Made by a program: the position numbers and the translations under genes
In this document: positions 1,397 through 3,635 of the stretch, in pieces
Layout of the letters: each line of letters begins with the position of its first letter
Numbering within the stretch: the first letter of the stretch is position 1
The notes under the pieces: model-generated
The model's database searches: none
What the model saw: only the letters and a program-made list of their open reading frames with translations
What the model was told of the DNA's origin: nothing
NCBI RefSeq assembly: GCF_009720745.1
Contig: NZ_WNKX01000004.1
Coordinates: forward strand, 127,421-191,420
Reading direction: 5' to 3'
Length of the DNA stretch: 64,000 nt
Source: Massilia eburnea
Lineage (GTDB): Bacteria; Pseudomonadota; Gammaproteobacteria; Burkholderiales; Burkholderiaceae_D

Positions 1397-1694
1397 AAAG
1401 CCTTTACCTAAAGGCGTTATGCGAAGGTGTTCGATCAGGTGGCGAGCGCGCGAGGTCGGCGAAGGCGTCGCGCAGCGCGTCTCAATGTGCGCTAACGCGC
1501 TGATCGACACAAAAAAAGAAGAAGAAAATCATTCGTGCTAGTTGCGCATCAACAAGCTTTCGTGTACTTTGCGAACTTGAAATCGCGTGAATATGCAAGC
1601 ACTGTTTTTTCGAGTGTGTTGTTACCGCAAAAATCGAAAAATAATGGGAACCAAAAACGCATAAGTATGCTTAAAGACCACACGACGACAGCGA

Positions 1695-1739
1695 AGCCGC
1701 TCTCCTGATCTCTCGATCAGGCCGGGCGGTTTTTTATTT
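1695..1739 (+). terminator. Orphan intrinsic terminator-like hairpin with T-run in the AT-rich intergenic region; no upstream CDS
   Basis: cctgatc-tctc-gatcagg hairpin extended by GC pairs, followed by ggttttttattt. The only annotated ORF here (1622..1846, minus) is a weak shadow ORF. Confidence 0.35.
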
Positions 1740-2037
1740 GAACGCTGGTCGTTACACGTGGCCCGACGAGGGGTCGAGGAGCTGAATGCACGCCCCACCC
1801 GCGCAATCGTCGCGACAAAGAATTTGAGTCCTGCGCTGCCCAGCACCGGCGCAGGAATCGATGGCTGAAGCGCTGCACTTGTGAGGAGGTGCAGCAGTTC
1901 AGCTGGGTGCCGAATTCATTAGCGCAAACCGCAATCCTGTTTGTGCCGATGAATAATTCGCCTGGTCCAGCGCAGGGCCGGACGGGTTTAAATCTTGTGC
2001 GTGAATTTTTCCCATCCCAGATGAAGGAGAACTAAAA

Positions 2038-3024
2038 ATGGCAACCGCCGCTAAGAAGAAACCAGCAGCCGCTAAAGCAGCTGCCCCAGCAAAGAAAGCT
2101 GCCGCCAAGCCGGCCGCTAAAGCCGCAGCTAAGCCAGCTGCTAAACCAGCTGCCAAGAAAGCCGCTGCCAAGCCAGCCGCTAAACCAGCAGCCAAGAAAG
2201 CCGCCGCTAAGCCAGCTGCAAAACCAGCAGCTAAGAAAGCAGCAGCTAAGCCAGTAGCGAAGAAAGCCGCTGCTAAGCCAGCAGCAAAACCAGCAGCGAA
2301 GAAAGCAGCAGCCAAGCCAGCAGCGAAGAAGACCGTCGCCAAGGCAGCAGCCAAGCCAGCAGCTAAAAAAGCAGCCGCTAAACCAGCAGCTAAAAAAGCC
2401 GTCGCTAAAAAAGCAGCAGCTAAGCCAGTAGCCAAGAAAGCAGCAGCCAAGCCGGCAGCCAAGAAAGCTGCAGCTAAACCAGCAGCGAAAAAGACCGTAG
2501 CTAAAGCCGCTGCCAAGCCAGCCGCCAAGAAAGCTGCTGCCAAGAAGCCAGCCGCCAAGAAAGCCGCTGCCAAGCCAGCTGCCAAGAAAGCTGCTGCTAA
2601 ACCAGCTGCCAAGAAAGCTGCTCCTAAAGCTGCTGCCAAGCCAGCCGCAAAAAAGCCAGCCGCTAAGAAAGCCGCTGCCAAGCCAGCTGCTAAAAAAGCC
2701 GCTCCTAAAGCCGCCGCAAAACCAGCTGCCAAGCCTGCAGCTAAAAAGGCCGCCCCAAAAAAAGCCTCGGCTAAGCCAGCAGCCAAGCCAGCTGTTGCGC
2801 CAGTAGCCGTAGCACCGGCTGCAGCTCCGGCTGCTAAACCAGCTGCCCCTAAGAAGGCCGCTCCGAAGAAACCAGCTGCTCCTAAGAAGGAAGCTGTGAA
2901 GCCAGCCGCCGCACCAGCACCTGCTGCTGCAGCCGCTCCAGCTCCAGCCGCCGCTCCGGCAGCTAAAACCGTGATCGCCCCGGCAGCCGCCTGGCCGTTC
3001 CCGACCAGCACCCGTCCTTCCTAA
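2038..3024 (+). CDS. Histone H1-like / AlgP-like nucleoid-associated protein made of AAKKAAAKPAAKP-type repeats
   Basis: Strong SD (aaggag) 8 nt upstream of the ATG. 328 aa of almost pure Ala/Lys/Pro repeats, typical of betaproteobacterial H1-like (BpH1/AlgP-type) proteins. The opposite-strand ORF 1899..3011 is the mirror artefact. Confidence 0.75.
   Translation: MATAAKKKPAAAKAAAPAKKAAAKPAAKAAAKPAAKPAAKKAAAKPAAKPAAKKAAAKPAAKPAAKKAAAKPVAKKAAAKPAAKPAAKKAAAKPAAKKTVAKAAAKPAAKKAAAKPAAKKAVAKKAAAKPVAKKAAAKPAAKKAAAKPAAKKTVAKAAAKPAAKKAAAKKPAAKKAAAKPAAKKAAAKPAAKKAAPKAAAKPAAKKPAAKKAAAKPAAKKAAPKAAAKPAAKPAAKKAAPKKASAKPAAKPAVAPVAVAPAAAPAAKPAAPKKAAPKKPAAPKKEAVKPAAAPAPAAAAAPAPAAAPAAKTVIAPAAAWPFPTSTRPS
2044..2770. 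repeat. In-frame tandem DNA repeats (about 33-36 bp units) encoding KKAAAKPAAKP
   Basis: Repeated gccaagccagc(a/t)gc(t/c)aa(a/g)aaagc(a/c)gc units visible across the CDS. Confidence 0.7.
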
Positions 3025-3054: not shown

Positions 3055-3096
3055 AACACCGCTGTGTGAGACAATCGCACAGCGGTTTTTTTATTT
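3055..3096 (+). terminator. Rho-independent terminator after the histone-like gene
   Basis: caccgctgtgtgagacaatcgcacagcgg hairpin followed by ttttttttattt. Confidence 0.55.
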
Positions 3097-3107
3097 GGAG
3101 TGAACTC

Positions 3108-3635
3108 GTGTTTAGTATTCTTAAGCTGATCGTCGATGTGGTCGCCGGCCTGCTCGGTGGCGTGCTGTTGCTGCGATTCTGGATGCAGGCTATCCGCGTC
3201 CGACCGCCTTCGTCGGTGGCACAGTTTACTTTTCAATTATCGGACTGGCTGGTGCGGCCCTTGCGCCGCATCGTCCCCGGCATGGGGGGCTATGACTGGG
3301 CCAGCCTGATAGGCGCTTTCCTGATGGTGATCCTGGCGACTTCGGTGCTGTTCCTGATAGGGGCGACGCCGGAGCTGGTGCTGCTGGCGGCCTTGCACCG
3401 CTTCCTGGAGTGGATCCTGTTCGGCTTCATGGCGCTGTTGATCATCGAGGCGGTGTTCAGCTGGGTTAATCCGCATGCGCCGCTGGCGCCATTCGTGCGT
3501 GCGCTGAATGAGCCGCTGCTTAATCCGATCCGCAAGGTGGTGCCGCTGGTGGGCAACCTGGATTTGTCGCTGCTGGTGGCGCTGATCCTGCTGCAGATCT
3601 GCCAGATCCTGCTTGGCATGCTGTTCGGCGGATGA
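3108..3635 (+). CDS. yggT: YggT family inner-membrane protein
   Basis: Hydrophobic YGGT-type sequence (ILKLIVDVVAGLLGGVLLLRFWMQ...). GTG start at 3108 preceded by ggag; the track ORF start at 3066 lies inside the upstream terminator. Confidence 0.65.
   Translation: MFSILKLIVDVVAGLLGGVLLLRFWMQAIRVRPPSSVAQFTFQLSDWLVRPLRRIVPGMGGYDWASLIGAFLMVILATSVLFLIGATPELVLLAALHRFLEWILFGFMALLIIEAVFSWVNPHAPLAPFVRALNEPLLNPIRKVVPLVGNLDLSLLVALILLQICQILLGMLFGG

Follow-up and report, generated by a model that had tools for sequence, protein, structure and literature searches.

The stretch of DNA analysed here, referred to as the window, consists of 64,000 nucleotides of a Massilia eburnea contig (NZ_WNKX01000004.1), and begins within a cheW-like gene whose product carries three CheW domains (Pfam CheW, E 7.5e-64). 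This gene stops at 1311; with an Ala/Lys/Pro-rich (AKP-rich) ORF beginning at 2038, the intergenic region, read directly, measures 726 bp. A preliminary description of the locus had given an AT-rich region of 725 bp; indeed, the GC content is 0.38–0.42 at 1501–1700 as against 0.65–0.75 in coding DNA. The cheW-like gene is followed by its own terminator at 1346–1392 (−34.9 kcal/mol, z −7.9), whose hairpin changes freely in sequence among congeners, with compensatory substitutions. Downstream of it lie a promoter-like element, a second intrinsic terminator and a series of hairpins, all on the plus strand, like every feature below unless otherwise mentioned.

The AKP-rich gene (2038–3024), which is always preceded by this module, has a Shine-Dalgarno (SD) sequence, AAGGAG, at 2024–2029, and Ala, Lys and Pro make up 95% of the first 150 residues of its product. 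Histone H1-like proteins with Ala/Lys/Pro repeats are abundant nucleoid proteins in beta- and gammaproteobacteria. The product resembles these families in composition, although it stays below the curated cut-offs for formal membership: 38.8 bits against 80 for NCBIfam hist_H1_lk_Burk (NF038053), and 27 bits against 40 for Pfam HC2 (PF07382). Among proteins of the H1-like kind, AlgP, for instance, connects polyphosphate granules with the nucleoid (PMC11894788). The GC content of the H1-like gene is below that of its surroundings, and its AT skew is extreme (0.6–0.8). Its repeats throw up a long spurious antisense ORF (1899–3011, minus strand), and ORFs of this antisense kind have been annotated by gene callers in public genomes, in place of the real gene or alongside it (loci L018, L114, and L115). 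The terminator of the H1-like gene (3058–3086 plus a T-run) overlaps the longest ORF of the next gene, yggT, which has a GTG start at 3066; because yggT homologues are 170–177 aa long, the true start probably lies near 3100–3111.

Conservation of the intergenic region and its linkage to the H1-like gene

Homologous loci were collected with two protein anchors. A scan with the CheW-like protein, taking one genome per species, yielded 16 loci from Pseudoduganella, Duganella, Massilia, and Rugamonas, of which the 14 with the whole intergenic region were used for identities and alignment. For other genera yggT served as the second anchor, which added contigs of Janthinobacterium, Massilia violacea, M. 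endophytica, Rugamonas apoptosis, Duganella guangzhouensis, Pseudoduganella danionis, and an Oxalobacteraceae genome. By nhmmer, the block upstream of the H1-like gene was recovered in 8 further genomes despite a differing upstream neighbour, with E-values in other genera of 1e-19 to 1e-50 for the candidate block and 1e-36 to 1e-55 for the leader block. The module is thus present in 22/22 protein-anchored genomes (Pseudoduganella, Duganella, Massilia, Janthinobacterium, and Rugamonas). Furthermore, 90 metagenome contigs carry an exact match to the promoter motif described below, one match per contig; these loci were picked by that motif, and their promoter identity is by construction.

Conservation of 1540–1740 in relatives, put forward as a check in the preliminary description, is pronounced: identity to the window is 94–99.5% in the 14 congeners, in comparison with 82–89% for cheW DNA, 74–85% for 1400–1540, and 84–92% for yggT. 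In the 14-genome alignment a near-invariant block runs from an A-tract at 1511 to ~1745, followed by a variable stretch with indels of 12–13 nt and, from ~1800 to the start codon, a second invariant block. Two ORFs, 1535–1708 (57 aa) and 1587–1664 (25 aa), exist between promoter and terminator, and both are broken by a 1-nt indel at 1611 in 5/14 close relatives; the earlier statement that no protein-coding ORF lies there is essentially right. Because the block is near-invariant while the indel breaks the ORFs that span it, 1511–~1745 can be regarded as being under strong selection that is not for protein coding.

The partner of this block is the gene downstream. An AKP-rich, H1-like ORF follows the promoter motif at a near-constant distance of 410–498 nt, and the H1-like gene is found downstream in 22/22 protein-anchored genomes. 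Among the metagenome contigs, ~78/90 have an AKP-rich ORF 410–498 nt past the motif, and in the same ~78 the terminator ends 124–176 nt past it. The 12 contigs not counted for linkage comprise 9 that are too short downstream, one that ends before the gene (L042), one without a match to the strict gene-start pattern (L086), and one missing from the table (L022). The upstream neighbour, on the other hand, varies: it is cheW, nrdB, a diacylglycerol (DAG) kinase gene, or a MarR gene, with the element unchanged. Since the upstream gene changes while the module and the H1-like gene stay, sequence comparison points to the H1-like gene as the constant partner and to cheW as an incidental neighbour. 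Both neighbours had been considered suggestive at the outset; the nucleoid-protein gene proved to be so, and the chemosensory gene did not. An RNA profile search found one copy of the module per locus and one in the 64-kb window, and no second or displaced copy was seen in any locus examined, so that a free-standing position, as is usual for a trans-acting Hfq-type sRNA, was not found. A break of synteny was observed in Rugamonas fusca (L013, 5431–6100), where the cheW-like gene is followed by unannotated ORFs of 126, 103, and 87 aa and then by a large GGDEF-like protein, not by the H1-like locus.

No match at gathering level was obtained with Rfam 15 for the whole window, nothing meaningful for 1200–2200 at E ≤ 10, and nothing for the Janthinobacterium homologue at E ≤ 1. 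With the H1-like protein as query, the matches were low-complexity tails of unrelated proteins, apart from one usable match, in Propionivibrio. Because that H1-like gene has no such leader, its 295-nt upstream region being unrelated, the range of the RNA family, sampled in five genera plus Propionivibrio, may be limited to the Massilia/Telluria group of Oxalobacteraceae.

The promoter-like element, the terminator and the predicted short RNA between them

The sigma-70-like promoter reported previously, TTGCGC-17-TACTTT at 1542–1570, is at its place. In this promoter (P1, 1542–1575), the −35 element TTGCGC (1542–1547) and the −10 element TACTTT (1565–1570; alternatively TGTACT at 1563–1568) are separated by a 17-nt spacer and match the sigma-70 consensus at 3/6 positions each, a weak 6/12; a sigma-70 scan does not list P1 and lists a non-conserved TCGACA-17-AATCAT at 1504–1532 instead. 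P1 sits within an invariant motif, GTTGCG-N10-13-TTTCGTGTACTTTRYGA, that is present exactly in 22/22 protein-anchored genomes. It is conservation, not consensus matches, that lifts the unit above chance. Conservation of the unit begins at the A-tract AAAAAAAGAAGAAGAAAATCATT (1511–1540), which is invariant in 14 congeners, has its A-run kept in other genera, and may act like an UP element. Further upstream, a perfect palindrome, GCCTTTA-CC-TAAAGGC (1400–1415, no strand assigned), is unique in the 64-kb window and invariant in 14 congeners. It occurs 140–152 nt upstream of the −35 in 32/100 loci, the arms being constant and the central dinucleotide variable, and is possibly a clade-specific operator, looking like a dimeric-regulator site upstream of P1.

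The orphan terminator, a hairpin plus T-run placed at 1695–1739 in the preliminary description, was located at 1693–1739. The hairpin (1693–1733) consists of an inner stem, cctgatc (1704–1710)/gatcagg (1715–1721), and an outer stem, ccgctc (1696–1701)/gggcgg (1724–1729), and the U6-A-U3 tract corresponds to T6 at 1730–1735 and ATTT up to 1739. It folds with −25.1 kcal/mol (z −3.9), and 0/200 shuffles fold equally well. As expected for an intrinsic terminator, the GC-rich hairpin runs straight into a U-tract on the transcribed strand, and no T-run follows it on the minus strand. A simple terminator scan misses it because of an internal mismatch. All of the 73 distinct homologues have a hairpin of 11–17 bp with −16 to −25 kcal/mol, followed by U5–7. 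In a dedicated alignment, 91.8% of cells pair in register as against 23–52% when the arms are slid, and covariation is not above shuffles, the stem varying too little; support for the structure comes from its energy and its conservation and not from compensatory substitutions. Among the 14 close relatives, the loop varies and the stems do not. The sequence is more conserved than a plain terminator requires, which is unexplained, and is nearly frozen, unlike the hairpin of the cheW terminator. The possibility that the hairpin terminates the upstream gene, raised at the outset, can be set aside since cheW has its own terminator at 1346–1392.

Between these two signals a short RNA of ~160 nt is predicted (1577–1737), 94–99.5% identical in 14 congeners and belonging to no Rfam family. 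Its 5′ end would be set by the −10 element and its 3′ end would lie in the U-tract; homologues in the 73 distinct sequences span 131–184 nt. The whole 176-nt stretch folds no better than shuffles (z −1.3), and RNAalifold on a MAFFT alignment (A1) recovered the terminator and nothing else. The conserved 5′ end leads into SL1 (1595–1622), a stem-loop whose loop is U-rich and which is variable in sequence and dispensable: its stems differ per lineage, the hairpin is always at the same place, cognate arms pair better than non-cognate ones (−9.0 vs −7.5 kcal/mol), and five versions of 131–140 nt lack it altogether. It is followed by a conserved core (1646–1690), unpaired in per-sequence folds, with the parts GGGAA (1646–1650), ACGCAUAAG (1657–1665), AUGC (1667–1670), and AAGACCACAC (1674–1683) in alignment A1. 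In the 73 sequences the GG of GGGA and AUGC are invariant, and AAGACCACAC is near-invariant. Most lineages have a U-rich CCGUUUUUG, a possible Hfq site, before the terminator, in place of which the clade of the window has CGACGACAGCGAA. The 5′ end of the short RNA (1576–1594, CUUGAAAUCGCGUGAAUAU) resembles the leader segment to which the core is complementary (1994–2008, CUUGUGCGUGAAUUU; see below); this likeness, possibly mimicry or duplication, is unexplained.

The invariant AUGC at 1667 opens a tiny ORF of 13 codons, MLKDHTTTAKPLS (1667–1708), whose UGA (1706–1708) falls in the 5′ arm of the terminator and which is weakly supported. In 55/73 distinct sequences it has 13–14 codons and the same UGA, among them cases with a +3 in-frame insertion and, in the clade of the window, a compensated +1/−1 shift; in 72/73 (99%) the stop either precedes the 5′ arm by at most 6 nt or falls inside the hairpin or past it. 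In attenuation of the pyrBI type, a short ORF preceded by a U-rich tract runs into an intrinsic terminator. Both features recur here, with the U-run present in most lineages, and a ribosome on the tiny ORF close behind the polymerase would block the hairpin and cause read-through. Such a mechanism is nevertheless improbable here. Unlike the pyrBI type, no ribosome-binding site is present: the upstream 12-mers contain no SD before the AUG, in contrast to the perfect SD of the H1-like gene. The frame is open in 99% of homologues and the other two in 88 and 68%, so the ORF signal is barely above that of other frames, and no Lys/Ala/Pro bias links the peptide to the H1-like gene. Furthermore, AAGACCACAC is read in different frames in different clades, and is therefore conserved as RNA, not as codons. 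What is expected of a small-protein gene is thus not seen, the longer ORFs being indel-broken and the tiny one lacking an SD.

It may also be asked whether any stable RNA is made, or whether the block is upstream regulatory DNA, curved, AT-rich and bearing operators, with the hairpin and T-run insulating it from upstream transcription. The weak promoter, the A-tracts and palindrome that look protein-binding, and the terminator stem without covariation above shuffles would be in line with this reading. It is hardly credible, however, given that SL1 changes sequence and keeps its pairing, that the upstream genes have their own terminator, and that 120 conserved nucleotides from promoter to terminator together with a U-tract in one orientation in ~100 loci are hard to explain by protein-binding DNA sites alone. 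From the sequence comparisons, the short RNA is very probably made.

The proposed leader beyond the terminator and its complementarity to the core

Structured RNA also occupies the 300 nt past the terminator. A spacer hairpin (1764–1812) with a conserved apical loop, GGAGCUGA..ACGCCC (1778–1796), shows compensatory changes in its arms, which pair as GCGACG/CGUCGC, GCGAUG/CAUCGC, GUGAAAU/AUUUCAC, or CGGCGCG/CGUGCCG depending on the lineage (cognate −15.9 vs non-cognate −13.8); the version in the window shows no unusual stability (z +0.9). Next comes a hairpin of freely varying sequence in which the two arms still match each other, UCCUGCGC...GCGCAGGA (1829–1856), for which the test of cognate against non-cognate arms gave −19.9 vs −14.8 kcal/mol, the cognate arm ranking 4 of 50. 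Consensus folding and nhmmer then delineated three conserved leader hairpins at 1863–1904 (loop GUGAGGAG), 1914–1954, and 1955–1988, with −26.8 (z −4.1) and −32.5 kcal/mol (z −3.3) for 1863–1988. As a whole, cognate arms pair better than non-cognate ones in SL1 and in the spacer, variable, and 3′ leader hairpins. The chain at 1863–1988 is conserved across genera without an Rfam match, and GUGAGGAG is an invariant, SD-like apical loop. Four exposed GGA/GGAG motifs were observed along the transcript, at 1646–1650, 1778–1785, 1881–1888, and 2024–2029, the last being the real SD; by analogy, their arrangement is reminiscent of CsrA/RsmA-type binding sites.

The last part of the leader before the SD, UCUUGUGCGUGAAUUUUUCCCAU (1993–2015), is complementary to the core of the short RNA. 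In the window the duplex amounts to −21.1 kcal/mol (z −4.9), UGGGAA pairing with UUCCCA and ACGCAUAAG with CUUGUGCGU. Across 82 sequences the median z is −3.3 against shuffles, and 79% are below −1.64; complementarity is weak in Janthinobacterium, the L021 group, L029, L065, and L102. Co-evolution of the two sides is small, cognate duplexes reaching −16.5 and non-cognate ones −15.6 kcal/mol, i.e., ~0.9 better. RNAduplex in long windows, run on the short RNA and the complete leader, yielded duplexes that were inconsistent and full of loops. The pairing is hence to be taken as a lead, not as a proven interaction.

Five bases before the hairpin at 1829–1856, an AT-rich box, AAGAAT (1818–1823), holds a fixed place in the spacer and reads AAGATT, TATATT, or AATATT elsewhere. 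It could serve a second promoter as a weak −10, or else pair with 1990–1998; its complementarity to AAAUCUUGU in the UTR is confined to the majority clade. If it were a promoter, the H1-like mRNA could start at ~1829 with a stabilising hairpin, and P1 with its terminator would form a self-contained gene for an independent, trans-acting and probably Hfq-dependent sRNA, regulating several mRNAs through the seed AAGACCACAC, with the H1-like mRNA perhaps among them. This is a possible, though tentative, reading. The anatomy is classic: a stem-loop at the 5′ end, a conserved core left unpaired, and a strong U6–7 terminator, before which most lineages have a U-rich stretch. An antiterminator was not found for this strong terminator, the −10-like box is fixed just before the free-sequence hairpin with its complementary arms, and pairing with the leader does not require the most conserved bases, AAGACCACAC. 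Against this reading, no −35 matches the box, the promoter scan lists nothing there, and the spacer upstream of the box has the compensatory changes typical of transcribed RNA. The linkage and spacing to the H1-like gene are fixed everywhere examined, with no copy elsewhere, and the U-rich stretch is absent from the window's own clade. Of the trans-acting sRNA in the preliminary description, a conserved, non-coding, plus-strand RNA of ~160 nt thus stands as a prediction, which may or may not act in trans. The fixed linkage and the structured RNA downstream point to a leader or attenuator module, or to a regulator dedicated to the H1-like gene, more than to a generic orphan sRNA.

Several other signals between the terminator and the gene were considered. 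No sigma-70 promoter was found in this interval by scan or by eye. A sigma-54 promoter at 1862–1877 (TGGCTG-N5-CTGCA) was rejected because these bases make up the 5′ arm of a hairpin, GGCUGAAGCGCUGCA...UGCAGCAGUUCAGCU, and a FliA-like GCCGATGA (1946–1953) as it lies in a hairpin arm at a distance from the presumed −35 that varies with loop length; RpoH-, RpoE-, and ECF-like readings of the spacer motifs gave no match by eye. No conserved antiterminator was found in the alignment and folds of 73 sequences, and no riboswitch by Rfam. CAAGAC/GUCUUG, the only antiterminator candidate, fails outside one clade. A pairing of the spacer loop ACGCCC with the 3′ arm of the terminator was also discarded, both partners being invariant, the loop lying downstream of the terminator, and the pairing failing in Janthinobacterium.

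A proposed attenuator-type leader and its relation to known systems

Taken together, the unit may best be described as a terminator-bounded RNA of ~160 nt that forms the first module of an attenuator-type leader of ~460 nt regulating the H1-like gene, to which we assign a probability of roughly one half. The leader is favoured because the linkage and spacing are absolute, selection at the RNA level extends past the U-tract, and no promoter is visible downstream. The geometry agrees, the terminator lying between promoter and gene on the same strand. Transcription would start near 1577 from the A-tract promoter (1511–1570), and most polymerases would stop at the terminator, releasing the short RNA, in which a dispensable stem-loop at the 5′ end precedes the unpaired core and the terminator hairpin. 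Those reading through would go on into the conserved hairpin chain and the H1-like gene. The core (GGGAA...ACGCAUAAG / AUGCACAAGA) may then pair with 1993–2015, either in cis, inside a read-through transcript, or in trans, once the short RNA has been released, and the pairing would set translation or stability of the H1-like mRNA, in one direction or the other. A strong terminator without a conserved antiterminator is unexpected in front of the gene for an abundant nucleoid protein, and together with the possible second promoter at 1818–1823 it weighs against the leader. The small co-evolution of core and leader, their weak complementarity in the lineages named above, and the ordinary stability of the spacer hairpin in the window count against it as well.

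A more speculative form of the attenuator-type leader would be self-targeting: the terminated 160-nt product would pair in trans with the SD-proximal segment of full-length transcripts, and an RNA-binding protein, or the basic H1-like protein itself, may recognise the exposed GGA/GGAG loops. Short and long transcripts from one promoter would then form a feedback that sets the dose of the nucleoid protein. We consider this doubtful.

In either form, the locus is a candidate for a new RNA family, absent from Rfam: a conserved RNA leader of ~0.5 kb in at least five genera of Oxalobacteraceae that would combine a promoter, a terminated RNA, a hairpin chain, and complementarity adjacent to the ribosome-binding site. 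In the literature searched, no description of this RNA was found, and nothing on the control of H1-like protein levels. The locus may therefore offer an entry point to post-transcriptional control of a nucleoid protein.

Known systems share parts of this organization. Like Hfq-dependent proteobacterial sRNAs, the unit has a promoter-like element, a length of 130–180 nt, a conserved core free of pairing, and a terminator that ends in a long U tail; unlike them, it is obligately linked at fixed spacing to one downstream gene and is followed by structured RNA past the terminator. It shares with the Burkholderia sRNAs of Rfam, such as ncS54 (RF02871), a betaproteobacterial intergenic position and a terminator end, whereas the sole weak match to that family (18.3 bits against a gathering score of 43, E 0.26) lies on the cheW terminator at 1326–1392. 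In Sinorhizobium rnTrpL and Listeria SreA/SreB, small RNAs derived from attenuators or riboswitches also act in trans. As in these cases, a short RNA would be produced by an intrinsic terminator inside the 5′ leader of a downstream gene in the same orientation, with a possible tiny ORF and the potential to base-pair with another RNA. They differ in that the present unit has no sequence or Rfam relation to them and no recognised ligand aptamer or antiterminator, that it precedes a nucleoid protein gene, not a biosynthetic operon, and that it finds its best complementarity in its own leader.

Conceptually, the closest published counterpart is h2cR, a Burkholderia cenocepacia small RNA that is encoded at the hfq2 5′ UTR and represses this gene, with binding and mRNA decay shown experimentally (PMC3474761). 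Organism family, gene and sequence are different, homology was compared via Rfam only, and the present RNA is predicted from sequence. In both cases a betaproteobacterial small RNA, here a predicted one, is linked to the 5′ UTR of an adjacent gene for a nucleic-acid-binding protein and pairs with it or, here, would do so.
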